Source: an uncultured Gammaproteobacteria bacterium
GTDB lineage: Bacteria > Patescibacteriota > Microgenomatia > Levybacterales > GWA1-39-11
Direction of reading: 5' to 3'
Length of the DNA: 64,000 nucleotides
Assembly: GCA_964425075.1 (NCBI GenBank)
Contig: CAYRKM010000001.1
Span: 106,137 to 170,136 of the forward strand
Shown here: positions 3,480 through 61,510 of the stretch, in pieces
Layout: each line of letters starts with the position of its first letter
How positions within the stretch are numbered: the stretch's first letter is position 1
Translations under genes and position numbers: made by a program
The notes under the pieces: model-generated
Seen by the model: the letters and a program-made list of their open reading frames with translations, nothing else
The model's database searches: none
Told to the model about the DNA's origin: nothing

Positions 3480-4150
3480 AAGGTTGTTTGTGGGACCGAG
3501 AGTACTGCATTCTCGAACCCTTTATCCTTCTCTTTTCATCAGCCCATAAGCATTACTATTATGCTTTTGGTGCACATTGACAAATCCTGAGTGAAAATTC
3601 AGCTGCTCTTGAGCAGTTTTACCAACTAGAGGGGCTTGCCCCGCAAGATTTGGAGCGGCGAGGATGCCAAAAAGAAAACGGGCCAGGGGAAACCTAGGCA
3701 AACGGCTAACTACCGGGCAACTTGGGCTCTGGGAAAGCATGATGCGCGAGCCGGGTGTCCAACCGGACATCTACGAGGGCGTTATTGCCGATGTTGACGC
3801 CTCCGGGCGTCAGATCGTACCCCGTGACCGCGACGAGGAAGGAGAAGCGCATGTGGCAACTAATTAAATGGGTACCTGGAGGTCCCAACAAGGTTCTAGT
3901 CGAGGCTCTCGATGAACCAAGAGCTGCTTCTGCTTTCCGTAGCAGACGGGAGGGCCAGTACACCATACGGGTTATCCAGCCAACTGGAGAGGAAGTCCCA
4001 CTGGACTGGTACAATCTCGCGCTCGACCACGAGATCTAGCTCACTCAGGACGGGTGAAGAAAGAGAAACTACCCGCAAGGGAATTATTTGCCACGAATTG
4101 CTCGTGTCAACTGATTGGGCAGCGCCCTTTTCACTCTTTCTTCACCTTCG
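3480..4150. other. GC-rich ~670-bp island without a convincing CDS (only short mutually overlapping ORFs on both strands); candidate structured RNA or remnant of foreign DNA
   Basis: Abrupt composition shift relative to the AT-rich flanks. Several local hairpins (for example GGGGCTTGCCCC at ~3632, GTGTCCAACCGGACAT at ~3753). Six-frame ORFs are 60-100 aa and overlap each other. Confidence 0.3.
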
Positions 4151-5882: not shown

Positions 5883-6004
5883 AATTTAAGTATGAAATAA
5901 AAATTAACAGGTAGCAAGTAGTAGCGGACTTAAGGTATGGGGAATTATTAAGAGTGATTGGTGGGAGACGACGCGCGATGCGTCGCCCCCCACCGGTTGC
6001 AGAG

Positions 6005-6409
6005 CTACGAAGCAGCGAGTGCTTCCTCGACCTCGAACATGTCGCTGGATCGAAAGAAGAGGAATTTTTGTTTCCATGAGAGACGTTCCACATCAACTGC
6101 GTTGATGATTTCACGTCCCCGCTGGCTATCGTCCCGGACAATCCCTTGGATTTCCGAGAGGCTAATGGGCGCTCCTTCGATCTCGGCATCGTCAAGTTTG
6201 CCCGTGCGGGCATCCCTCAACCCTTCCGAGATGTTCTGGAGCTCTGCCATCAAGATGGCAAAAGCCCCCTCGTCGTACTCCCTGCGGGAGCAGACGACGA
6301 ACCCGAACAGTCGAACAGCCACGAAACACTTCCCTTCTCGGCATAGCCGAATTCGCTCTGCTATATGTCTTACCGAAAGTGACTTTTGAGAACGTGCAAC
6401 CGCGCTCAT
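6005..6409 (-). CDS. hypothetical protein encoded in a GC-rich island (likely horizontally acquired)
   Basis: 134-aa ORF that fills the GC-rich block ~5940-6410. Other-frame ORFs are shadows typical of GC-rich DNA. A CGACGC-GCGAT-GCGTCG hairpin lies just past its stop. Confidence 0.4.
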   Translation of the reverse strand: MSAVARSQKSLSVRHIAERIRLCREGKCFVAVRLFGFVVCSRREYDEGAFAILMAELQNISEGLRDARTGKLDDAEIEGAPISLSEIQGIVRDDSQRGREIINAVDVERLSWKQKFLFFRSSDMFEVEEALAAS

Positions 6410-6570
6410 ACATCACAAACAGTACCTACAATTTTACTCCTTTTGAACCCAAATGTCAAGCTATAGGATGTTTCTGCTACCCAGAAATAGGATAACTTTT
6501 TGAGCAATGACTAATGGTTAATAGCTAATAGTTTTTTTGTATTTCAAACTAATTTTTCTCTTTCGTCGTT

Positions 6571-6760
6571 TAGTACTGAACATATGAATAACCGAATGAA
6601 TGAGTGGCCGCGAAGCGGAAGAACTGAAAAGGCGAAGTCCGAGTTCTTAACGAATGAATGAGGTTTTGAATACGTGAAGGACTATTGACGAGAGCTTTTG
6701 CCTGCACTGAGTGAAACGAATGTGGTACTTTTCTCGGTAGAAAAGTACATGAGCTCGTTA
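6571..6760. repeat. intergenic repeat element, copy A (family shared with 43025..43130 and 61327..61510); contains a 9-bp-stem hairpin GTACTTTTC-tcggta-GAAAAGTAC
   Basis: Shared blocks with copy B: GTACYGAACATATGAA, CGAATGAG (x2), GAATACGTGARGRAC-ATTGACGAGAG-CTTTGC, then the hairpin followed by A(T/A)GAG. Confidence 0.6.
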
Positions 6761-7102
6761 TTTCGTGAGGCTTTCCAATCTATCCGCGGTTTTCTTACTC
6801 CCTATCACAATAATGTACGTTCCCAATACAAAACATACACCTTTTATCAAAAATACTCCAACGGAATAGACATTGCTATAACTTATCTGAAAATAGGAGT
6901 TAATTGCATCAATTATTATTCCCAAAGCCAAAAATAATACTCCTGTAGCAATTGTTTTAAAACCGTGAGCCAAAATTCCACTTCCAAATTTTTTTGTAAC
7001 CTGATACATAATAAGCGCGGCGGTAATTGCAGCAAATGCAGCCACAAAAGAAATTCCATTTACGATAATGGTTAAGAATTGAAGGTCATTAAATTCGTAC
7101 AT
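6758..7102 (-). CDS. small polytopic membrane protein (3-4 predicted TM helices), hypothetical
   Basis: Hydrophobic helices throughout (FLTIIVNGISFVAAFAAITAALIMY, ATGVLFLALGIIIDAI, VGVFLIKGVCFVLGTYIIVIG). Confidence 0.5.
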   Translation of the reverse strand: MYEFNDLQFLTIIVNGISFVAAFAAITAALIMYQVTKKFGSGILAHGFKTIATGVLFLALGIIIDAINSYFQISYSNVYSVGVFLIKGVCFVLGTYIIVIGSKKTADRLESLTK

Positions 7103-12753: not shown

Positions 12754-12869
12754 ACCACTAGACTAACAATAAATAGAAATGCTTGTAAAGAAGGAAAATA
12801 ACGATTTTCTTTTGCAGTTGAAACAAAAGCTTTTGGTACTTCTGGAGGTCAAAAAGACCAAATAGAAAA

Positions 12870-15869
12870 CTATTTAACCACTATATTGAGGATTTTTCCC
12901 TCTACGTATATAACTTTTACAACATCTTGCCCTTCTAAGTACTTTGAAAGTTGCTCTCTTGCCATTTTTTCTATCTTTTCCTTATCCTTTGCCTCAAGAG
13001 ACTTAACCTCAATAATAAGCCTCTTTTTACCGTTAACCTGCACTACAATATCAGCAGTTTCACTCTGAAGCATTGCGCTATCAAAGTCTGGCCATGAGCT
13101 TATGTGAATTGAGTTAGTATTTCCTAATTTCTGCCACAGCTCCTCTGTCATGTGAGGCGCAAATGGGGCCAAAAGCTTTAAATATGTCTCTTTTTCTTCT
13201 CTCATCAACCCTTCTTGAGTAGAAAGAAAGTTATACCATTCCATTAGTGAGGCTAAAGCAGTATTGTTTGTAAACTCTTCTACCTGTTTTGTTACCTTTT
13301 GAATTGTTCTGTGCATAAATCTTTTTGCTTCAATTGAAGCTTCGTTTGTCTCAGGTTTCTCGCTTATGAGTTTCCAAACTTTCTTAAGGAATCTATTCAT
13401 TCCCTCAATTCCACTATCTCTAAAGTCTCCACCCTCAGATAAAGGTGCGATAAACATTAAATAAGAGCGCAAAGTATCAGCCCCATATTTAGAGATATAT
13501 GCATCAGGAACTACCACATTGCCCTTAGACTTTGACATTTTCGCCCCATCTTTTATCACAAGGCCATTAGCAAAAAATCTGGAAAATGGTTCTTCGAAGT
13601 TCAAATATTTCAAATCGTGAAGCGCCATCGTGATAAAACGCGCATACAAAAGATGTAGCACTGAATGTTCAGCTCCGCCAATATACATATTCACAGGAAG
13701 CCATTTTTTAGTAATTTCTGTATCAAAAGGTGCGGTTTGTATATCAATTGATGGGTATCTTAAGAAATACCATGCGCTATCAAGAAACGTATCACTAACA
13801 TCAGTCTCGCGTTTAGCTGGCTTACCACACTTAGGACAATCAACTTCAAAAAACTCAGGATGGTTATCAAGGGGAGCTTTTCCTGTGCCCATTGGTTTCC
13901 AATCTTCTACATCCGGAAGCAAAACAGGCAATTTATCATCAGAAACACAATACCATCCGGGCATGTCATTACGCTCACCCTTATTGTTTGTTGCACAATT
14001 CTCACAATAAATCATCGGAATTGGTGGTCCCCAATAACGTTGTCTAGAGATAAGCCAATCTCTAAGGTGATACTGTATCTTTCTTTTGCCAATTTTCTTT
14101 GCCTCAAGCGAGCTCAAAATTTTATCAGCGTCTTCCGGCATGTGAAAACCATTCCATTCATCAGATCCTATAATTTCTCCTTTTCCCTCAAACGCTTCAC
14201 TTAATTCTCCATTCTTAATTCTTGACTCTTTATCTTGAATTACTTGGACAATCGGTAGATCATATTTCTTAGCAAACTCGAAGTCTCTCTGGTCATGAGC
14301 TGGAACTGCCATAATTGCACCCGTCCCATAGCCTGAAAGAACATAGTCTGCTACAAAAATTCGTATTTTTTTCTGATTGAGTGGATTTATGGCAAAAAGA
14401 CCAGTATCTACTCCAGTTTTTTCTTTTCCTTCTGCAGTACGCTCAATATCCGTCTTGCTCTTCGCCATTTCTATATACTCTTTAACTTCTTGACCATTGT
14501 TATTATTTGCTACTTGCTCCGCAAGCGGGTGCTCTGGTGCAATTACCATAAAAGTTGCCCCATATAATGTATCAGGCCTAGTTGTAAAGACTTTTAGGCT
14601 ATTTAGCAAAACTTCAAGTACCTTTGGCTCAATTTCTCCACAGATGTGATCATCTTTGGACTCAAAATCTATGATTTCTCCACCAATTTGTTCCTTTATG
14701 TAGTCTGCTCTCTCTTTTGGTACAGCAGTATCATTTTTAGCTCTTAACAGTACTATATTCGCCACATTTTTCTTTATGGTTTGTGTATCAAACTGTCCGA
14801 TTTGTTCCTCAAATGACTTATCATGATCTAAAAATCCTGGCTGCATAAATCCGGCTCCTAAAACTAAATTTTTAATAGGCTTTTCCAGCTTTTCAAGAAC
14901 TTTTAAGGCAACGACTGAACCAAGGCTATGCCCTAAAATTACCGTATTTTCATCAATTTGAGCATTTTTTAAAACAAATTCAGCCTGTTCATCTATATTA
15001 GGATTATCAGTATTGGGCAGGTTTTGAGCCCAAACTTTATTGCCCCTCTTTTCTAGTTCTTTCTTAAGCCATGGAAAGAAATTAGCCTCAACTGACCCAG
15101 TATATCCATGCAAAAGAACATAATTAGACTTTTCATCTACTTCAAACTCCACTTCTGCTCCTTCGCTTTTTCCTATCCAATTTCTTTGGGCAATTTTGAC
15201 CTTTTCAGTCCAATTGAGACTCTCAATATTATTTAAAAGTCTCTCAGCGTAATTTGTAATCCTAAAAAACCACTGCTCAAGCTCTTTCTTCTCCACTTTG
15301 CTTCCACATCTCTCACACTCTCCTGCTATAACCTGCTCGTCAGATAACACTGTTTGATCCTGAGGACACCAATTTACGGTCGCCTTTTTACGGTAAGCAA
15401 GGCCATTTTTAAAGAGTTGTGTGAAAAGCCATTGTGTCCATTTATAATATTCAGGGTCATAAGTTTCAATTGTCCTATTCCAATCAAATGAATTTCCAAT
15501 ACTTTTAAGTTGGCGGTAGAAGTTAGACTCTGCTATTTCAGCCTGAACTTTTGGATGACGGCCCACTTTCATGGCATAGTTTTCACTATGGATTCCAAAT
15601 CCATCAAGCCCAATTGGCTCGAAAACATCATTTCCCTTCATTCTCTGGTAACGCCCATATACATCAGCGCCTGTAAAAGCGTACATATTACCCACGTGAA
15701 GACCCTCAGCTGAAGGGTACAGGAACATCATGAGGTTGAAAAAAGGTTTTTTTGCGTTGATTATATTTGGAGAATACAATTTATCACTCTCCCAAACTTC
15801 CTGCCATTTGGCTTCAATTTCTGAGTGGTTATACTCCTTTTTTGAACTGTTTTGTTTATCTTGTGCCAT
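12870..15869 (-). CDS. leuS: leucyl-tRNA synthetase with an inserted alpha/beta-hydrolase (RBBP9/YdeN-type serine hydrolase) domain preceding the CP1 editing domain
   Basis: HIGH-type motif LHVGNMYAFTGADVYGRY. KMSKS motif (KMSKSKGN). CP1 editing signature TTRPDTLYGATFMVIAPEHP...GTGAIMAVPAHDQRD. Anticodon-binding and C-terminal domains present. About 175 extra residues (aa ~250-426) carry GHSLG plus Asp and His. Confidence 0.9.
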   Translation of the reverse strand: MAQDKQNSSKKEYNHSEIEAKWQEVWESDKLYSPNIINAKKPFFNLMMFLYPSAEGLHVGNMYAFTGADVYGRYQRMKGNDVFEPIGLDGFGIHSENYAMKVGRHPKVQAEIAESNFYRQLKSIGNSFDWNRTIETYDPEYYKWTQWLFTQLFKNGLAYRKKATVNWCPQDQTVLSDEQVIAGECERCGSKVEKKELEQWFFRITNYAERLLNNIESLNWTEKVKIAQRNWIGKSEGAEVEFEVDEKSNYVLLHGYTGSVEANFFPWLKKELEKRGNKVWAQNLPNTDNPNIDEQAEFVLKNAQIDENTVILGHSLGSVVALKVLEKLEKPIKNLVLGAGFMQPGFLDHDKSFEEQIGQFDTQTIKKNVANIVLLRAKNDTAVPKERADYIKEQIGGEIIDFESKDDHICGEIEPKVLEVLLNSLKVFTTRPDTLYGATFMVIAPEHPLAEQVANNNNGQEVKEYIEMAKSKTDIERTAEGKEKTGVDTGLFAINPLNQKKIRIFVADYVLSGYGTGAIMAVPAHDQRDFEFAKKYDLPIVQVIQDKESRIKNGELSEAFEGKGEIIGSDEWNGFHMPEDADKILSSLEAKKIGKRKIQYHLRDWLISRQRYWGPPIPMIYCENCATNNKGERNDMPGWYCVSDDKLPVLLPDVEDWKPMGTGKAPLDNHPEFFEVDCPKCGKPAKRETDVSDTFLDSAWYFLRYPSIDIQTAPFDTEITKKWLPVNMYIGGAEHSVLHLLYARFITMALHDLKYLNFEEPFSRFFANGLVIKDGAKMSKSKGNVVVPDAYISKYGADTLRSYLMFIAPLSEGGDFRDSGIEGMNRFLKKVWKLISEKPETNEASIEAKRFMHRTIQKVTKQVEEFTNNTALASLMEWYNFLSTQEGLMREEKETYLKLLAPFAPHMTEELWQKLGNTNSIHISSWPDFDSAMLQSETADIVVQVNGKKRLIIEVKSLEAKDKEKIEKMAREQLSKYLEGQDVVKVIYVEGKILNIVVK

Positions 15870-16216: not shown

Positions 16217-16489
16217 ATGCCGCTCCTGATTGCTCTGTGGCTGATGTCCTGCATCGGCATTGGAGTACGAACGTACTCCAATCCGAAGGACATTAAGGGC
16301 ATCGCAATTGCGTTTGGACTTTGTGCTGTCCCACTCACGTGGGCATTCGGCAACGGTCCGGCCGCAATCATCATTGCGGTCTCTTTCCTCGTCTGTATTC
16401 TCTTTGGAGCCTGGCTTCGAAGATATTACGGCGAGGAGATCAACCAGTTCTTGTGCAGGCTCGAGGAGAAATTCTACGAGCTGAAATAA
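16217..16489 (+). CDS. small membrane protein in a GC-rich island (hypothetical)
   Basis: Strong SD (TAGGAGGTAAAACATG). Two to three TM helices. GC-rich relative to flanks. Confidence 0.5.
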   Translation: MPLLIALWLMSCIGIGVRTYSNPKDIKGIAIAFGLCAVPLTWAFGNGPAAIIIAVSFLVCILFGAWLRRYYGEEINQFLCRLEEKFYELK

Positions 16490-16544
16490 TGCAGACTAGA
16501 AAACCCAGCGACCAATACCCAACCTGAAAGGAAGGGATGAACAG

Positions 16545-17084
16545 ATGCGACCAGGAAAAGAAACCGTCAAGAACGCAGGCTTTGTTACTATCGTGGCAAC
16601 GTTTACGATCATGATTGGGGTACTCTTTGTGGCTTCTGGAGAGAAACCAGAACCTGCAACGAGCTCCAGGGCCAAAGTTGACCTCCAGTTGTTGGCCTCG
16701 CCAACAACTGTACCAACACTGCTTCCTGCAGCTTCTCGCTGTTCTGAAGCAATATACATATACCCTCAAGGCGTAATTCTATTCCACAACTTGGATCCAT
16801 ATCCTGTCGATGGATTCGATTTCCAAGTCTGCACAACAGACAGGATGACGCCGATAACAGCTGCTGATATGATGGTCGCAGCTAACGAGGGGCAACTCGC
16901 AATGGAGGAAAGTCTCCTCTGGGATCCAGACCTTCTAATGAGAGTATTCTTAGAAGCGGCTGTCCCAAGGATATCGCAACTCCATCCCGAGCTAAGAGGG
17001 CTGCTTCTGGAGACATACTTCCAGTTCATACCTAAAGGAGGAGTCATCCCCACAGCGACAGCAACATCAAGACCCTCTACATAG
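16545..17084 (+). CDS. hypothetical N-terminally TM-anchored protein in a GC-rich island
   Basis: N-terminal TM (FVTIVATFTIMIGVLFVASG). Same GC-rich block as 16217..16489. Overlapping ORFs in other frames are treated as GC shadows. Confidence 0.45.
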   Translation: MRPGKETVKNAGFVTIVATFTIMIGVLFVASGEKPEPATSSRAKVDLQLLASPTTVPTLLPAASRCSEAIYIYPQGVILFHNLDPYPVDGFDFQVCTTDRMTPITAADMMVAANEGQLAMEESLLWDPDLLMRVFLEAAVPRISQLHPELRGLLLETYFQFIPKGGVIPTATATSRPST

Positions 17085-17124
17085 GGGCGGCACATCGATT
17101 GGCTAAGAAACCTACGCGACTAGA

Positions 17125-17165
17125 CTCCCGCTTTGCCCTAACCGGCTGAGCGGGAGAAACCCTTT
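17125..17165 (+). terminator. stem-loop (CTCCCGCT ... AGCGGGAG, 8-bp stem) followed by a short T-run; terminator-like, closes the GC-rich island
   Basis: Perfect 8-bp inverted repeat 17125-17132/17149-17156, then AAACCCTTTT. Confidence 0.35.
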
Positions 17166-17213
17166 TAAAGCCCCAAACTTGAACTTTCTATATAAATCCA
17201 CTACGATTAAATT

Positions 17214-18595: not shown

Positions 18596-18995
18596 ATTTA
18601 TAAGTGAAAAGTTGCATCTTCGGAGTTAAAAGTCGCAATTTGAGCTTGGATTTGTATAATTGTAGTATATTTTGTGCGTAGTAAAGGCTAGGAATTTAAA
18701 AAACGTTGATATATCAATCCAAAGTCTATACTCTACTTGTTATCACTTTGACCATCTTTTTGCCATTTGCAATTTTGAAAACCAAGCAAACTAAATGATA
18801 TACTTTGATATATATATTTTCACAGAGTGCTTTTCACACTTAATCTCGGAAGTAAAATAAATCTATTACCGCATAACTCGAAAAATAATACAAACTTGGG
18901 CTTATATATAACTCCGCTAGAATACTACTTCTGTGAAACATAAACCCGGGAACATAAAACTTTAACTTTTAGATTATTTACAGTAGTATGAATAT

Positions 18996-42769: not shown

Positions 42770-42934
42770 AGAGAAGAATTAAAAAGAAAGTATTAAATTG
42801 GAATTTTGCATTAGAAAAGCTCCCTCTTCCTCATTTTGGAAATCAAGCATGAAGTTTCTTTTCTTTTTAAGCTTTTATTTTGCAATTGAAACAAAGAGCG
42901 TAAAGATTTTGTGACCGAAGCACAGCCGGGGGAA

Positions 42935-43130
42935 TCCTCGTCCCGATGCATATCGGGATCGAGGAGGGGGTGATATCCCACACTGTGCGAGGGAACAAAA
43001 TTAGCTCGACTTTCATTGCAAATTCTTTTTGGTACTTTTGTTAAGACAAAAGTACAAGAGTAAACATTGACCAGAGCTTTTGGTACTTTTGGCGGTTCAA
43101 AAGTACAAGAGAAAACAGCGACAAAAAAAC
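42935..43130. repeat. intergenic structured repeats: perfect palindrome CCTCGTCCCGAT-gcat-ATCGGGATCGAGG plus two tandem copies of the family hairpin (GTACTTTTG-n6-CAAAAGTAC-AAGAG)
   Basis: 43025-43063 and 43073-43112 each hold a 9-bp stem/6-nt loop hairpin. The second is preceded by ATTGACCAGAGCTTTTGG and followed by AAGAGAAAAC, as in copy B at 61468. Confidence 0.55.
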
Positions 43131-43190
43131 AAGCCACAAGTAAGTATAAAATTGCAAAATAAATCGCCCTTTGCTAAACTGTAACCTCTT

Positions 43191-44339
43191 ATGCGGCATC
43201 ACAAAGCTTCTTTTGTAGTGGCAAAAAAATACATTTCAGCAATTAACCAAGCACATATTTTCCTCAAAAAAGAATTCGCAAGTTTTTTAATTTTTCTATC
43301 AACATATCTTAAAGATAAGATTATGTTCTTCTCCACTAAATTCGAAAAAAATAAAAATGTTGTGGTTAAGTCTGTTCTTATAAAAAGAGGTAAAAGGAAT
43401 CGCTTCTTTCTTCATGTTAGCGCTATGGCTGTACTTAGCATAGGAGTCCTCATATCTCCCTTCATTACTGAATCAAACCCCTTTACACACCAAGAAAACC
43501 TTCTGACCTTTGCTCAAGAGTTATCTGAAGAAAATCAAAGCCTTGCACCAAATGACGTATTTGAGACCCAATTATCCGATAAGCCTAGAGCAGAAATTAT
43601 TGAATATACTGTACAAAAGGGAGATACAGTGTCTGGAATTGCAAAGAGATTTGGAATATCAGATGACACAATCCGTTGGGAAAATGGCCTTAGAGGCGAC
43701 AATATAACTGTTGGGGATACTCTAAAAATCCTACCGGTTACGGGTATTGCTCACAAAGTAAGTTCTGGAGACACAATTTATACAATTGCTAAAAAATATG
43801 ACTCAAATGCTCAGGCTATCGTTGATTTTCCCTTTAACGACTTTGCAGACCCTCAAACCTTCTCACTTGTTACCGGTCAAACAGTTATTGTGCCAGATGG
43901 GGTTAAACCTGAAGTTCAGCCAACATATATAAGACGCCAACCCTTTATTGCAACAGGGCCGACAGTTGTTTCGGGTGCTGGGTTTACTTGGCCAGTTAGA
44001 GGTAGCCTCAATCAGTACTTCTCTTGGTATCATAGAGCAATTGACATAGGTGCACCAGTTGGTACCCCAATCGTTTCAGCTCAAAGCGGCGTTGTTTCTC
44101 AGGTGTATGTAGGTGGATGGAATGGTGGATATGGAACCCACGTTATTATTTCTGGCGACAATGGCTATTCTACTCTTTATGCTCACATGTCAGGCGTTAA
44201 TGTTTCCCCTGGTCAAAAAGTAAGCGCAGGCTCAAGCCTTGTGGGTTGGGTGGGGCTAACAGGAAGAACTACAGGTGCACATCTTCACTTTGAAATTCGA
44301 GGCTCAGGCGGACTATATAATCCACTTAGTTTCTTATAG
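43191..44339 (+). CDS. LysM-domain M23 family peptidoglycan endopeptidase
   Basis: Two LysM motifs (YTVQKGDTVSGIAKRFGISDDTIRWENGL; HKVSSGDTIYTIAKKYDSNAQAI). M23 catalytic HRAIDIGAPVGTPIVSA ... GYGTHVII ... GAHLHFEI. Confidence 0.85.
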   Translation: MRHHKASFVVAKKYISAINQAHIFLKKEFASFLIFLSTYLKDKIMFFSTKFEKNKNVVVKSVLIKRGKRNRFFLHVSAMAVLSIGVLISPFITESNPFTHQENLLTFAQELSEENQSLAPNDVFETQLSDKPRAEIIEYTVQKGDTVSGIAKRFGISDDTIRWENGLRGDNITVGDTLKILPVTGIAHKVSSGDTIYTIAKKYDSNAQAIVDFPFNDFADPQTFSLVTGQTVIVPDGVKPEVQPTYIRRQPFIATGPTVVSGAGFTWPVRGSLNQYFSWYHRAIDIGAPVGTPIVSAQSGVVSQVYVGGWNGGYGTHVIISGDNGYSTLYAHMSGVNVSPGQKVSAGSSLVGWVGLTGRTTGAHLHFEIRGSGGLYNPLSFL

Positions 44340-46730: not shown

Positions 46731-47181
46731 AAACATCGCCGTTTTGCATGGCAAATATCCAACTCACAAAAACCTTGTTCTTTGACAAGGTAACAGGAAA
46801 AAGGCATTTTTGGTGCCGGGCACAGCGTACCATATTGAACCAAAAGGTTCATATGTCCGATTTCACAATCGGTCATAACAAGCTGCTACGAAGGGGTAAA
46901 ACCTGACGTATAAATATGGTGCGCGCTGTCCGGCGCCAAATGAGCGTGGAAAAACGGGTTTAGAGAAAGGAGGCCAATAATGGCCTATTGCTTGAACTTC
47001 TGCATACTCCTGCTCGACTCCCTTTGGGGAGCGAACAGGATCCGTGCAGGCCCGTTTATTTGAAACGGAAACATCAACCCAGTAGCATAGTAATGACTAA
47101 GCCTTCGCGCAAGCGGAGAGGCAGGTAACTCTGCTAAACCATGCATGCCGGCAAAGTCCGGTTAGCAAAAGGGAGATCACC

Positions 47182-47913
47182 GTGAGGTGGTATTCGTACA
47201 TTGGCCTGGGAGCCGCCGTGATCTTCATGGCTGGATTCTTCAGTGCCTGCTCGGACGACAGTGGAGCCACTGCTGACGAGATCGCTGCTGCGATCATCGC
47301 CGCCCAAGCGACTGCAACCCCAGCAGCAACGGCGGCAGCAACGGCAACGGCTAGCGCACTCACGCCCGACCAAATTCGCCAGATCGTTCTGGACGAAATG
47401 GCCAAGGCGGGGCTGCCAGAGCCGACCAGCGCACAGCTGCAAGAGATCCTCAAGAGCCTCACTGAGGCCCTGAAGGGCTCGACCCAGACTGCAGATCAGT
47501 TCCGCGGTGCCGTCAAGGTCTGGCTGACTTCTAACCAGAAGGTCCAGGCTGGCGTCGTGCCCGCCTATAACCCAGCAGCGTTCCCCAAGAGCGCCGCTGA
47601 GGCAGCAGCCATCTTCGGAGGCGACGCTTCCCGTTGGGAGCCGACGGCTGACTGCTGTGGTTGGCATCTGCGCGAGGAGGCGTTCACCACTCTCATCCAG
47701 CCGAAAGGTTTCCTGGGTGAGGGCTACAACGACACCAAGCCTGGGAAGAATCCGGACTGCTACACGTTCGTTGCGCCAACTTCGGTCCAGGGCGCCACGA
47801 TCTGGCAAGAGGCCGGCACCTACCCGAACGCCGTCGCGCTTCAGAAGAAGATGGCCATCCCCGTCTGGGATGATGGCAAGCAGCACGCTTGCCAGGTACT
47901 CGCAACGCCATAA
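47182..47913 (+). CDS. putative lipoprotein (GTG start) encoded in a GC-rich island; likely horizontally acquired
   Basis: GGGAG SD 7 nt before the GTG. Signal plus lipobox-like AGFFSAC. Ala/Thr-rich linker. Strongly GC-rich versus flanks. A ~280-bp GC-rich leader lies upstream. Confidence 0.55.
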   Translation: MRWYSYIGLGAAVIFMAGFFSACSDDSGATADEIAAAIIAAQATATPAATAAATATASALTPDQIRQIVLDEMAKAGLPEPTSAQLQEILKSLTEALKGSTQTADQFRGAVKVWLTSNQKVQAGVVPAYNPAAFPKSAAEAAAIFGGDASRWEPTADCCGWHLREEAFTTLIQPKGFLGEGYNDTKPGKNPDCYTFVAPTSVQGATIWQEAGTYPNAVALQKKMAIPVWDDGKQHACQVLATP

Positions 47914-48008
47914 GCGCTTAGCTTCTCGCATGGGAGGGGGGTCCGATACGTCGGCCCCCCTCAAATACTTTCACTGGGACATTCCTGTTACCTTGTCCCC
48001 TTTGCCCG

Positions 48009-49382
48009 ATGTGTATCGGGCCTGATGAGTCCAAAAGGACGAAAAGGAAAATGAAGAATTTATTCAAAAAATACAATACACTTGACACTTTGATAGTTAT
48101 CTCTAGCTACCCAAAAAAACAGGAGATATATAGCAAGGGTGTATGCGCTGTGGCCTCATTTACCAAAAACACCATTAGGCCACTTATTAAGAAAGGTCAA
48201 TATAAAAAAATTGTTGTTCTGACAATGATTGTTGATAAAGAAGAAGTCTACGAAGAGGATGGTATTTTAGTAGTAAGATGTTTTAAACGCAATAACCCTC
48301 TGTCTTATTTTTCCCTTTTAAAAAAACTTTTACATTTCTCTCTTGCAAAAAGAGTGCTTATAGAATTTGAGTTTGCCTCTTTTGGAGATACAAAAGCTAC
48401 TCTTGCCATTCTTCCTCTAATTTGGTCGCTTTTTTTCTTGGGAAAAAATGTAACTCTTGTTATTCACCAAGTCGTTATCGACCTTCAAAAATTAAGTGGG
48501 CATATCGGAATAAATTCAAAGGAACTTATCTCACTACTCTTCAATCCAGGACTAAAACTTTATTACAAACTATTATCTTTTCCTGTCTCGTCAATTATAG
48601 TTCTCGAAGATAGCCTTAAAGAATCGCTTTCAACCATCGTAAATAAAGACAAAATAACTGTTATTCCTCATGGTGTACCAATTGTTAATAAAATATTTTC
48701 AAAAAATAAAGCCAAACAGAAATTGGGTGCAAAAAATGAAGTTGTGATTTTGTATTTTGGCTACCTTACATGGTATAAAGGCGTTGATTTCCTTATAAAG
48801 TCGCTTCTTAACCAAAAAACTTTTAAAGGTAAAAAAATTCGCTTGATAATTGCAGGTGGACCAAGTTTTACTCAGGAAGAGAAGTCTCACTACAAGAAAT
48901 TTCTTGCAAAAATCTATAACCTTATAAATAAAGCCCCCGATAGAATAACTATTACTGGATTTGTGAAGGAAGAAGACATACCAGTCTATTTTGCCGCTGC
49001 TGACCTTGTCGTATTTCCATATCGTACTTTTATTTCCTCTTCTGGTCCTCTCTCATTTGCTCTTGCTTACAACAAACCTTTTCTTATTTCCTCTAGATTA
49101 GAAACCATTTTGGACAGCATTGACGCAAAAAAATCGCTGCAAAGAGCGGGAATTACTAAAAATGATGTTGTGTTTAACTTTAACTCAAAAGATTTATTGA
49201 CAAAAATATCAAACTCTCTATCAAAAGAACAATTAAAGAAACTTGAAAGATTCAGCTTATATTTATCAAAAGAAAGGTCATTTGGCAATTTGTCTGCATC
49301 TTATCAAGAAGTACTCTCAAGAAATGTTACGAGAAAAATTCCTTTAATTCCATATCCTACATATCAGTTCCACCATGAATAA
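48009..49382 (+). CDS. glycosyltransferase family 1 (GT-B, GT4-like)
   Basis: C-terminal GT1 signature region ..ITITGFVKEEDIPVYFAAADLVVFPYR... Probable true start MKNLFKK at nt 48051. Confidence 0.65.
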   Translation: MCIGPDESKRTKRKMKNLFKKYNTLDTLIVISSYPKKQEIYSKGVCAVASFTKNTIRPLIKKGQYKKIVVLTMIVDKEEVYEEDGILVVRCFKRNNPLSYFSLLKKLLHFSLAKRVLIEFEFASFGDTKATLAILPLIWSLFFLGKNVTLVIHQVVIDLQKLSGHIGINSKELISLLFNPGLKLYYKLLSFPVSSIIVLEDSLKESLSTIVNKDKITVIPHGVPIVNKIFSKNKAKQKLGAKNEVVILYFGYLTWYKGVDFLIKSLLNQKTFKGKKIRLIIAGGPSFTQEEKSHYKKFLAKIYNLINKAPDRITITGFVKEEDIPVYFAAADLVVFPYRTFISSSGPLSFALAYNKPFLISSRLETILDSIDAKKSLQRAGITKNDVVFNFNSKDLLTKISNSLSKEQLKKLERFSLYLSKERSFGNLSASYQEVLSRNVTRKIPLIPYPTYQFHHE

Positions 49383-53781: not shown

Positions 53782-54499
53782 ATAACCCACGACCCTTACG
53801 ATCAGGGCTTTCTTGAACAATTGTAAGTATTTAATCCCCACCAAGTTAATACATTTCCCTCATACCCCTCTTACGCTACCTCTCCACACTATAGTTGTCT
53901 TTGAAGTGCACTTTGGACATTAAAATTTCAATAATCGAAAAATAGTGTTTTAAGAAAAAAGTTGTAGACATGGTTATCCACATTTTTTATTTATTTTAAA
54001 AAACGTTGATATATCAATCTATTTTGTTAATCCAAAAACTCTAGGGTTATATAAAACCATATCAGTTTTGTTATAGGTTGAAGATGTTGACAGCATGTGC
54101 TATACTTTTCTTTAACTTGTATTTTGGATGTTTTATAAACATCCTCATATATGGGCATACAACATGAAACTTTTCTCTTTCACTAAGAAATCACAACAAA
54201 AGAGTCTTCGTAGAAGAAGAATTATCTCCGATTATTATCAAGAATCCATTAACACTTACGGGAAAAAGCAATTGATATCACTCATTGACAGAGGCCTTAA
54301 CCCTCAGTGGTAAATAGTACTTACCATAGGGTTGGATCTTTTGAGTTCATGAGGATCTTTTACAAGAAGTTACAGAAAAATTCCTGGCTATGCTAGGAGA
54401 AAGAAAAAGAGCATCGCTTTCGCTACTACAAAGATAAGTTCAAGTACGAAAAGCAATGCTCTTTTAACTGTTAGCTTTTAGTCTTTTAGGCAGGGTAAG

Positions 54500-61278: not shown

Positions 61279-61326
61279 GAACTTCTATAATTCTGAATGA
61301 TTAATTTCGCCATTTTGTACCGAACA

Positions 61327-61510
61327 TATGAACCAGTAAGCGAATGAGGGATTCTGAGCTTTGTGAAGAAGAAAGATGTAAAGGCTGAACGAAGTGAACT
61401 GCCGAATCTTTCAGCGAATGAGCGAAACCGGTGAATACGTGAGGAACAATTGACGAGAGGCTTTGCTACTTTCGCCGGTACGAAAGTAGAAAGAGAAAAC
61501 CTGCTGTTGA
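61327..61510. repeat. intergenic repeat element, copy B (same family as 6571..6760); hairpin CTACTTTCG-ccggta-CGAAAGTAG then AAAGAGAAAAC
   Basis: See copy A. Relative to A and C the stem is changed on both arms (GTACTTTTC/GAAAAGTAC to CTACTTTCG/CGAAAGTAG), which preserves pairing. Confidence 0.6.

Follow-up and report, generated by a model that had tools for sequence, protein, structure and literature searches.

The window, i.e. the whole stretch of 64 kb that was analysed, contains four perfect hairpins with a 9-bp stem and a 6-nt loop, all located on the + strand (6725-6748, 43032-43055, 43083-43106 and 61466-61489). Protein similarity places the organism in the candidate phyla radiation (CPR), the closest named relative protein coming from Candidatus Levybacteria. 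The number and nature of the hairpins are as claimed in a preliminary description of this DNA, and the degenerate hairpin pattern by which they were retrieved yields an expectation of 0.00 matches in 100 shuffles. Such hairpins form the 3' modules either of elements of about 180 nt (copies A, B and C1) or of minimal cores (C2 and a further copy, D). The written strand of all copies is the + strand, although A and D are flanked by minus-strand genes and B and C by plus-strand genes. Applied to the window, a core model of the element recovers the known copies only, C2 being the top match with 62 bits, followed by B (56 bits), C1 (47 bits), A (36 bits) and D (8 bits).

Copy A is a full-length element of subtype t3 spanning 6563-6748 (+ strand), which aligns end to end with metagenomic t2/t3 elements. 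Its 5' end, P1a (6563-6568, TCGTCG), pairs with P1b (6686-6691, TGACGA) under inclusion of one G.U pair. P1b is followed by the trinucleotide GAG (6692-6694), the U-rich linker CTTTTGC (6695-6701), a 23-nt insert (6702-6724) and the hairpin GTACTTTTC-TCGGTA-GAAAAGTAC (6725-6748), which is recognised both by the pattern and by the core model. The score of 36 bits refers to this hairpin, and the separated piece harbouring P1b and the linker (6684-6716) obtains 14 bits. In correction of the preliminary description, the insert parts GAG-CUUUUGC from the stem in copy A. A minus-strand ORF (6758-7102) has its stop codon 9 nt from the end of the hairpin. Copy B, likewise full-length and of subtype t3, extends from 61306 to 61489 (+ strand). 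Here, P1a (61306-61311, TCGCCA) and P1b (61451-61456, TGACGA) pair with one C.A mismatch, and GAG (61457-61459) and the linker GCTTTG (61460-61465) precede the hairpin CTACTTTCG-CCGGTA-CGAAAGTAG (61466-61489), the linker C agreeing with the C-G pair of the stem. Copies A and B can be aligned over about 160 nt with 66% identity (blastn E value 1e-10). The ordered blocks formerly described for this pair are indeed shared, except that blocks given as CGAATGAG read CGAATGAATGAG in A. Similarly, the A(A/T)GAG motif said to follow the hairpins is preceded in B by one additional A ahead of AAGAG.

Copies C1 and C2 reside in a lineage-specific insertion block (42770-43135, + strand) which is delimited by alignment to the empty sites of two related loci, L176 and L178, and which separates the TPR gene's stop codon from the conserved, promoter-like stretch ahead of an M23 peptidase gene. 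C1 (42880-43055, + strand) is a full-length element of CPR subtype 1 and was aligned with 19 metagenomic type-1 elements. It comprises P1a (42880-42885) and P1b (43017-43022; TTGCAA/TTGCAA), the helix P3 (42896-42899, GAGC, with 43004-43007, GCTC), which is backed by the type-1 alignment, a GC-rich variable hairpin region at about 42923-42992, the linker (43026-43031) and the terminal hairpin (43032-43055). C1 is in part degenerate as ATTC replaces GAG and the loop, TTAAGA, is atypical. C2 (43066-43106, + strand) is a minimal core composed of ATTGACC-AGAG-CTTTTG and the hairpin GTACTTTTG-GCGGTT-CAAAAGTAC (43083-43106), after which AAGAGAAAAC follows; the stem arms GTACTTTTG/CAAAAGTAC are present in both C hairpins. 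Copy D (about 12812-12866, + strand) is decayed and internally deleted. Its type-1 5' end TTGCAGTTGAAACAAA is fused straight to AGCTTTTGG, and the degenerate hairpin GGTACTTCTG-GAGGT-CAAAAAGACC is succeeded by AAATAGAAAAC, the copy ending just 5' of the LeuRS stop codon (12870).

The earlier view that the hairpins are not simple intrinsic terminators is borne out, as no U-tract or terminator-like site is located 3' of any copy. Around A, B and C, 0 terminator-like sites were detected and a U-tract is absent from either strand. Unlike a terminator, which combines a G+C-rich hairpin with a U-tract, the element possesses an A/U-rich stem which is followed by A-rich sequence. ARAGORN reports no tRNA or tmRNA in the window.

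Spread, architecture and helices of the family

Pattern scans locate the core in more than 200 places in CPR bacteria, Balneolaceae, Bacteroidales, Chloroflexota, Clostridia and phage contigs; the repeat family proposed earlier is real and very large. A scan for hairpin plus tail in one genome per species led to 53 loci, about 40 of which carry the additional, unselected context (GAG)CTTTTG(G/C) just 5' of the hairpin. About 11-14 of the 53 appear chance-like, being situated in coding sequence such as metK without the flanking context, which agrees with a chance expectation of about 9 that we roughly estimated ourselves. The context-bearing loci stem from Balneolaceae, Bacteroidales, Crocinitomicaceae, Chloroflexota (Ardenticatenaceae, Leptofilum and Promineifilaceae), Clostridia, uncultured Gammaproteobacteria and Saccharimonadia. 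At least 120 loci emerged from a metagenome scan requiring GAG, linker and hairpin, and 39 stretches from a scan of viral contigs, some of which contain two to five copies within less than 10 kb. A BLAST search of three full elements against plasmid and phage records returned 0 matches, though the viral pattern scan did find cores. Rfam 15 was searched with the window, with 18 loci and with four elements in isolation; at the gathering threshold it matches only tRNAs elsewhere in the loci, and at permissive thresholds no family is added beyond weak hits to archaeal C/D-box sRNAs and to preQ1-II, which are at chance level. A literature search with sequence words and keywords also retrieved no description of the element family, which is apparently uncatalogued.

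Full elements measure about 170-230 nt and have sharp ends in within-group alignments. They follow the common plan 5'-P1a ... interior ... P1b-GAG-YUUUG(G/C)-[UACUUUYS-N6-SRAAAGUA]S-3', in which a lineage-specific interior is combined with an invariant 3' module of about 45 nt, which opens with P1b, or a short segment X in its place, and continues through (GAG) and YUUUG to the hairpin. The hairpin's final 3' base marks the exact limit of conservation, and beyond it an A-rich flank diverges at once; these 3' flanks are low in complexity and, in some cases, conserved between copies. Four subtypes can be distinguished: CPR type 1 from groundwater CPR metagenomes, to which C1 aligns end to end; CPR t2/t3 from CPR metagenomes, to which A and B belong; a marine type of about 230 nt, represented by marine metagenome loci similar to copies of a Balneola genome; and a GC-rich type of about 330 nt from Bacteroidales, the latter two having no copy in the window. 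Minimal cores composed of X, linker and hairpin alone are found not only as C2 and D but also in phage intergenic regions and in the IS21 copies of three Chloroflexota genomes, where they lie past the istB stop and ahead of the terminal repeats. The segment X of full-length elements has the remote 5' end, not the loop, as its pairing partner.

The compensatory changes of the stem, formerly put down to selection for structure, were assessed in 192 non-identical contexts from public collections, three stem positions having been left free in the search patterns. The free pairs are complementary in 192/192, 192/192 and 191/192 contexts, the sole exception being one C.A, with G-C and C-G occurring 159 and 33 times at the first position, U-A and C-G 177 and 14 times at the second and G-C and C-G 178 and 14 times at the third. 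By pair counting, 100% of the cells are paired and double changes affect 34 of them, compared to 6.6 in shuffles, and variants collected by covariance model also swap pairs fixed in the pattern (UAC/GUA to UUC/GAA). The compensatory stem changes are far above chance, and the claim of selection on structure is upheld.

Further helices are evident outside the hairpin. For P1, the 7 nt before GAG were matched to sequence 100-170 nt upstream, where their mean best complementarity is 5.81 as opposed to 5.44 ± 0.04 with permuted partners, a far better fit. Many compensated variants of this helix exist, such as TCATCAA/TTGATGA, TTGTCAC/GTGACAA, TCGTCAC/GTGACGA and CCGCCAA/TTGGCGG. The type-1 interior contains 39 pairs in seven helices, of which P4 crosses P3 to create a pseudoknot. 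As many as 88.6% of its cells are paired, compared to 36-48% in slid alignments, and 13 pairs show double changes, with 0/500 shuffles scoring as high; P3, for example, occurs as GCGC/GCGC, GAGC/GCUC, GGCC/GGCC and GGAC/GUCC. In A and B the loop could also reach back to pair with the 5' end (UACUGA/UACCG), but this long-range helix was rejected as it fits these two copies and a few relatives and not the subtype in general. Whole-element fold energies of the single sequences A and B (z = -0.8 and -1.9) are not clearly beyond those of shuffles, and covariation was therefore used as structural evidence; the closeness of these energies to shuffles counts against the interpretation favoured below.

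Linker-stem register and loop pairing

Within the 3' module the U-rich linker (YUUU) changes in step with the 3' hairpin arm (RAAA), in parallel orientation. Where the second stem pair, counted from the loop, is C-G, linker base -6 (situated four positions 5' of the linker G) is C in 9/9 copies; where this pair is U-A, the base is U in 115/116 copies (Fisher test for C/U versus C-G/U-A, 6e-13). The C-G variants are drawn from at least three subtypes. In locus L158, whose stem contains a C.A mismatch, the linker agrees with the purine strand, and in L150 (1319-1363) a second, different triple position is C where the stem has G-C, again in the parallel register. The alternative that the linker joins the 3' arm by antiparallel Watson-Crick pairing was considered and discarded as the C variant is placed at the wrong end; since the changed linker base is situated at the end opposite to that needed for antiparallel pairing, the register is parallel to the purine arm. 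This is the register of U.A-U and C+.G-C major-groove triplexes, and the covariation, as read from the sequences, fits a triple-helix hairpin or pseudoknot. The feature by which major-groove triples are classified, isosteric covariation of third-strand pyrimidines with the purine strand of the stem (U with A-U, C with G-C) in parallel orientation, is thus present at the sequence level. The three-way covariation also fits a reading of the complementary strand, in which an A/G-rich strand contacts the stem, an observation counting against an RNA of the written strand.

In minimal and type-2 cores the loop additionally pairs with X, a pairing matched by permutation in 2/2000 trials. It is compensated within a single Balneolaceae genome (GGCGAC/GUCGUU and GGCGGUU/AACGCU), in Chloroflexota (CUCGC/GCGAG and UGGC/GCCA) and in phages (CCGCC/GGCGG and GCGCC/GGCGC). 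Together, the triple register and the loop-X pairing result in the strand order of H-type pseudoknots of the telomerase and SAM-II type. As in the telomerase pseudoknot, SAM-II/SAM-V and preQ1-II, the minimal cores are arranged as X, U-rich L1, stem 5' arm, X' and stem 3' arm, L1 matching the A-U pairs beside the junction. In contrast to the telomerase and riboswitch pseudoknots, X of the full-length elements pairs with the distant 5' end, and SAM-II, SAM-V and preQ1-II differ further in that the present elements are multi-copy and mobile, occur in a random gene context unrelated to any ligand and reach no significant Rfam score. The core hence shares the topology of triple-helix pseudoknots but is not a member of the riboswitch or telomerase families. 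A Bacteroidales copy threads weakly on preQ1-II in cmscan, with 17 bits compared to a threshold of 47.

Insertion sites, neighbouring genes and strand

The spacer between the TPR gene and the M23 peptidase gene, which accommodates C1 and C2, has a length of 421 nt in the window compared to 61 nt in L176 (77% protein identity) and about 45 nt in L178 (75%). Likewise, the spacer between the genes of an M50 protease and enolase, which accommodates B, measures 286 nt in the window and 47 nt in L180, L181 and L182 (81-85% identity). As these syntenic relatives lack copies B and C, the copies represent insertions. Scanned with the core model, the four related loci at the TPR-M23 spacer (33 kb) yield no core. 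Terminal inverted repeats are absent: the 5' ends of the elements (e.g. TTCGCCATTT or GCGAGCGCTGAAAC) do not repeat the 3' hairpin end in inverted form, and the complementarity of the ends is that of P1, which lies internal to the hairpin. A target-site duplication, proposed earlier as a check of a MITE nature, could not be found as a fixed-length repeat in the flanks of A and B. C is flanked only by an imperfect duplication of the native spacer, about 45 bp in length, and 58/2000 shuffles reach its score. The former comparison with REP/MITE-type elements or small RNAs stands as far as the repeat family, the stem covariation, the missing U-tract and the empty sites of B and C in relatives are concerned. 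It fails with respect to terminal inverted repeats and target-site duplications, and no REP-associated transposase was seen among the families listed for the window and the 115 ORFs flanking other copies.

No protein partner recurs beside the copies. In 115 ORFs flanking other copies 134 Pfam families are represented, each in at most three ORFs, and the 25 commonest of these families include no transposase, reverse transcriptase or nuclease. Within the window, neither transposase, reverse transcriptase, TnpB nor Y1 transposase is among the listed Pfam matches of the ORFs, and a cis-encoded protein is absent. It is established that the family is real, abundant and insertion-polymorphic and has a selected multi-helix fold.

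As previously proposed, the copies prefer gene ends: 17 of the metagenome spacers are convergent, 31 tandem and 6 divergent, with gene 3' ends and convergent spacers enriched among the loci. The gene adjoining the hairpin end is convergent in 58 versus 25 metagenome cases, its stop codon often being 3-11 nt away. In tandem metagenome spacers, 12 copies lie on the strand of the genes and 19 on the opposite one. Of the tandem spacers on phage contigs, 11/12 (from about three independent families) have the written strand antisense to their genes, and in the Chloroflexota IS21 copies it is antisense to istB, the core starting 7 nt past the istB stop. The + strand of the window is C-rich throughout, and the written strand coincides with the C-rich strand at 51/77 metagenome loci (66%, p = 0.006) and 25/35 viral loci. 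Copies a few kb apart share the same strand, as is the case for pairs or triplets in L040, L029, L065, L110, L191 and L221, the exception being tail-to-tail doublets of type 1 and type 2 in marine genomes. Orientation accordingly follows the chromosome strand rather than the genes, which suits a process linked to replication and single-stranded DNA better than an mRNA element. Counts of G.U versus A.C (15 versus 28 in alignment A7, partly due to misalignment) do not favour the written strand. These counts, the antisense orientation in phages and IS21 and the adherence to the chromosome strand count against an RNA of the written strand. Convincing sigma-70 promoters were not found at the copies, and none is evident upstream of most of them. 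This paucity of evident promoters likewise counts against the explanation preferred below.

Interpretation and comparison with known systems

The family is best explained, with a probability of roughly 0.45 in our estimation, as a widespread set of non-autonomous, insertion-polymorphic structured elements which fold in the RNA transcribed from the written strand (the + strand of the window) and carry a protective end module. In this RNA the pyrimidine linker would run along the hairpin's major groove in parallel with the purine 3' arm and form U.A-U and C+.G-C triples, and in minimal cores the loop would also pair with X to give an H-type pseudoknot of the telomerase or SAM-II kind. The triple-helical hairpin may thereby constitute a compact, nuclease-resistant end module that defines or protects the 3' end of the element transcript or of an upstream message. 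By analogy with REP hairpins and with ENE/MALAT1, it might block 3'-to-5' exonucleases or set transcript ends, and the same fold might serve as a cis-signal for propagation of the element. We infer RNA of the written strand since several covarying interior helices together with a pseudoknot are typical of functional RNAs, since the pyrimidine-motif reading is the isosteric one and since conservation ends exactly at the hairpin, as it would for a protected 3' end. A multi-helix, pseudoknotted interior is not known for the ends of transposons.

Whether the fold forms in RNA or in DNA has, however, to be weighed with regard to orientation, for which a REP/REPIN-like DNA element offers the best account. 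The structure would then form in single-stranded DNA, either on the lagging-strand template or in a transposition intermediate, and would be acted on in trans by a transposase of the HUH/Y1 type or another one, effects in RNA being incidental. Such an element, the main rival explanation, which we regard as possible but rather doubtful, readily explains why neighbouring copies are co-oriented whatever the strand of the genes, both in the window and in the loci with pairs and triplets mentioned above, and why the written strand is so often C-rich. It also suits the insertion polymorphism, the decayed and internally deleted copies, the marine tail-to-tail doublets and the position of cores within IS21 and beside IS3 ends, and T.A-T and C+.G-C triples are classical in DNA. 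Yet no Y1/RAYT, HUH or other transposase is present in the window or among the families listed for the 115 flanking ORFs, a conserved GTAG-type flank is missing, the 5' end has no similar hairpin, and the interior of about 150 nt with its covarying helices and pseudoknot greatly exceeds in complexity all known ends to which transposases bind. Phages and IS21 point in yet another direction, as their orientation is best accounted for if the complementary strand acts within mRNAs. The hairpin would there be succeeded by an A-rich stretch pairing back to the loop in an H-type pseudoknot and would serve, just after stop codons, as an intergenic or 3'-UTR signal for processing, stabilisation or termination. 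The phage tandem spacers and the IS21 cores indeed show the required orientation, and both the excess of convergent genes at the hairpin end in metagenomes and the distance of 9 nt between copies A and D and stop codons comply with it. Copies B and C of the window and 12 of the 31 tandem cases are, however, oppositely oriented and neither strand offers a U-tract; moreover, no minor-groove rule is known by which an A/G strand would covary with stem identity, whereas the pyrimidine-motif reading is isosteric. We consider this mRNA signal improbable.

Two further explanations seem very unlikely to us. Divergence of the 3' flank directly past the hairpin would be expected if this flank were a guide and the element an orphan guide-RNA scaffold related to TnpB/Cas12-type omega RNA, the nuclease being encoded elsewhere, and type-1 elements presumably share the short stretch ACGAAUGAA with the Cas12f repeat. 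The 3' flanks are, however, A-rich, low in complexity and sometimes conserved between copies, none of the copies overlaps a tnpB or cas gene or lies next to one, and an Rfam match is lacking. The omega RNA of TnpB does contain a triple-helix stem-loop whose apical loop makes a pseudoknot (PMC10097598, PMC10711439), and like the present family TnpB/Cas12f scaffolds are carried by mobile elements across phyla (PMC10097598). The order of parts, though, differs: in omega RNA the last approximately 5 nt before the guide pair with the apical loop of a 5' triplex stem-loop (PMC10097598), whereas here the triplex hairpin is 3'-terminal, its loop partner, if present, lies upstream and no guide is evident. 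As the neighbours are, in addition, unrelated housekeeping genes, whereas an omega RNA overlaps with, or lies just past, the 3' end of tnpB, a link to TnpB/Cas12 was rejected on grounds of topology and gene context, and the likeness is limited to the triplex stem-loop with its loop pseudoknot. The widely conserved 9-6-9 palindrome with its variable centre is also reminiscent of a double-stranded DNA site bound by a conserved protein, be it a palindromic operator or a recombination site of the dif/lox-like 11-6-11 type. Arm variants within one genome are, however, always self-complementary, the gene context is inconsistent, and the covariation of P1, of loop and X and of linker and stem would have no role in the recognition of a duplex.

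The family behaves like REP/MITE-type repeats yet fails defining tests of these, namely those of the GTAG flank, terminal inverted repeats and target-site duplication. With REP/REPIN elements and BIMEs it shares multi-copy intergenic hairpins at gene 3' ends, inverted doublets in some genomes, a possible double nature as mobile DNA and as stabiliser of RNA 3' ends and, as is characteristic of the REP type, intergenic repeated palindromes kept by compensatory change. In contrast to REP, the hairpin makes up no more than the 3' module here, the element as a whole being far longer (170-230 nt) and possessing a closing helix, an interior with a pseudoknot and the linker-stem triple register. Its stems begin with (G/C)TAC, are flanked by YTTTG(G/C) on the 5' side and by A-rich sequence on the 3' side instead of a GTAG-type motif, and no RAYT (Y1 transposase) gene, which in REP systems typically has REPs on its flanks, is found in the 64 kb or among the families listed for the 115 flanking ORFs. 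Moreover, REP families are species-specific, whereas the same core sequence here spans phyla and phages. Bcr1 of Bacillus cereus, Correia of Neisseria and the enterobacterial ERIC are similarly non-autonomous, insertion-polymorphic and modular, with decayed copies and a conserved predicted fold; the present elements differ from these in lacking terminal inverted repeats and a consistent target-site duplication, in their cross-phylum range and in the 3' module of the triple-helix type.

A parallel to the putative end module is provided by ENE/MALAT1/PAN, in which the conserved RNA terminates in an A-rich strand held between two U-rich ones, a C+.G-C interruption is tolerated and a protective role has been proposed. 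Those RNAs are, however, eukaryotic or viral and clamp poly(A) or a genomic A-tract across an internal loop, while here the Hoogsteen strand would directly precede the hairpin, whose protective function is putative. A more ambitious reading, which we put forward tentatively and deem rather unlikely, is that of a hitherto unrecognised cross-phylum class of structured RNA in bacteria and phages, with a 3' pyrimidine-motif triple-helix pseudoknot as counterpart of the ENE/MALAT1 caps, residing on SINE-like non-autonomous elements that would have spread without a cis-encoded protein through CPR bacteria, Bacteroidota, Chloroflexota, Clostridia and phages.

Triple-helix end motifs have so far been seen mainly in eukaryotic and viral long RNAs, in telomerase and in a few riboswitches, and the smallest bacterial genomes are thought to be poor in repetitive DNA. 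If the fold forms in RNA, the family would provide a natural bacterial and phage triple-helix end-cap, borne by a mobile element that is abundant in the smallest bacterial genomes known. Folding in DNA would instead point to an undescribed mobilisation system common to several phyla and dependent on hairpin and triplex. In either case hundreds of natural variants of a compact triplex module are at hand, with a testable model in at least one isolate of the genome collection, the Balneola strain EhC07 (NZ_LXYG01000019.1, locus L051). In many metagenome-assembled genomes the family also accounts for breaks in the assembly and for intergenic insertions that lack annotation, and a Logan contig from another sample carries copy B and breaks within its hairpin.

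Surroundings of the elements in the window

The insertion comprising copies C1 and C2 of the structured repeat is flanked on both sides by native spacer sequence, duplicated as an imperfect direct repeat of about 45 bp (42770-42876 versus 43107-43193); an equally high score is reached by 58 of 2000 shuffled sequences. The flanks of copies A and B are devoid of any duplication comparable to that around C1 and C2.

Four islands of the window (3600-4000, 5950-6410, 16400-17200 and 47100-47960) are rich in G+C, amounting to 50-63% versus a background of about 38%. None of their ORFs gives a Pfam match, and this includes the ORF at 6005-6409 (minus strand, 134 amino acids) within the island beside copy A, which is not assignable to any Pfam family. 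A near-consensus sigma-70-like promoter (TTGACA-17-TAAAAT, 11/12) at 6431-6459 of the minus strand is directed into this island. The ORF at 47182-47913 (plus strand), located within the island 47100-47960, has the appearance of a genuine lipoprotein-type gene whose composition is foreign.

A core resembling a type III hammerhead is present at about 47990-48050 (plus strand), immediately upstream of a glycosyltransferase gene. It consists of helix I (GCCCGAU-GUGU-AUCGGGC) followed by CUGAUGA-GUCC-AAAA-GGAC-GAAA and scores only 18.8 bits in a 121-nt scan (E 0.065), compared with the 48.5 bits that Rfam sets as its threshold. A hairpin similar to its helix I, CCCGAU-GCAU-AUCGGG, is found within copy C1 at about 42953-42968. 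Elsewhere in the window, the leucyl-tRNA synthetase gene (12870-15869, minus strand) harbours an inserted alpha/beta (serine) hydrolase domain at residues ~250-404, and two intergenic regions that lie far apart share a direct repeat of 25 nt without any mismatch (18695-18719 and 53995-54019).

Variation of P1 and an adjoining hairpin

Among the loci from public collections (L-numbers), some elements of type 1, the CPR subtype to which C1 belongs, carry as P1b the sequence GCGAGC or GCGAAC (L068, L122, L147 and also L076, L085, L126, L155). Since P1b is thus identical instead of complementary to P1a, the long-range closing helix P1 of the other copies cannot form in these elements.

In CPR metagenome contigs as well as marine contigs the elements are repeatedly accompanied by another small hairpin of the form (G)AUCCUGAA-N-UUCAGGAU(GACA), either 15-40 nt downstream (L076, L093, L110, L113, L122) or upstream (L084, L116). 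It may constitute another cross-lineage repeat.

Cores in mobile and viral DNA

In Chloroflexota (L013, L021, L046) the minimal core, which comprises segment X, the U-rich linker and the terminal hairpin, resides within IS21 copies, where the istB stop codon is followed by the core, an intrinsic terminator and the GGTGACATTTT terminal repeats. In L036 and L006 it adjoins IS3-family transposase genes, one of which is inserted in an RHS gene.

The phage contigs L221 (8.3 kb, viral, with terminase and portal genes) and L191/L192/L209 contain three to five intergenic cores, every one of them antisense to the genes, with the stem variants GUCCUUUUG/CAAAAGGAC among them. One conserved intergenic block with a core is common to about 17 viral contigs.

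In the Bacteroidales-type loci L040 (1-3200) and L047 an element of about 330 nt stands ahead of small cassettes which, according to ORF translations, encode HEPN and nucleotidyltransferase, followed by a Fic protein. This layout is reminiscent of cassette arrays.
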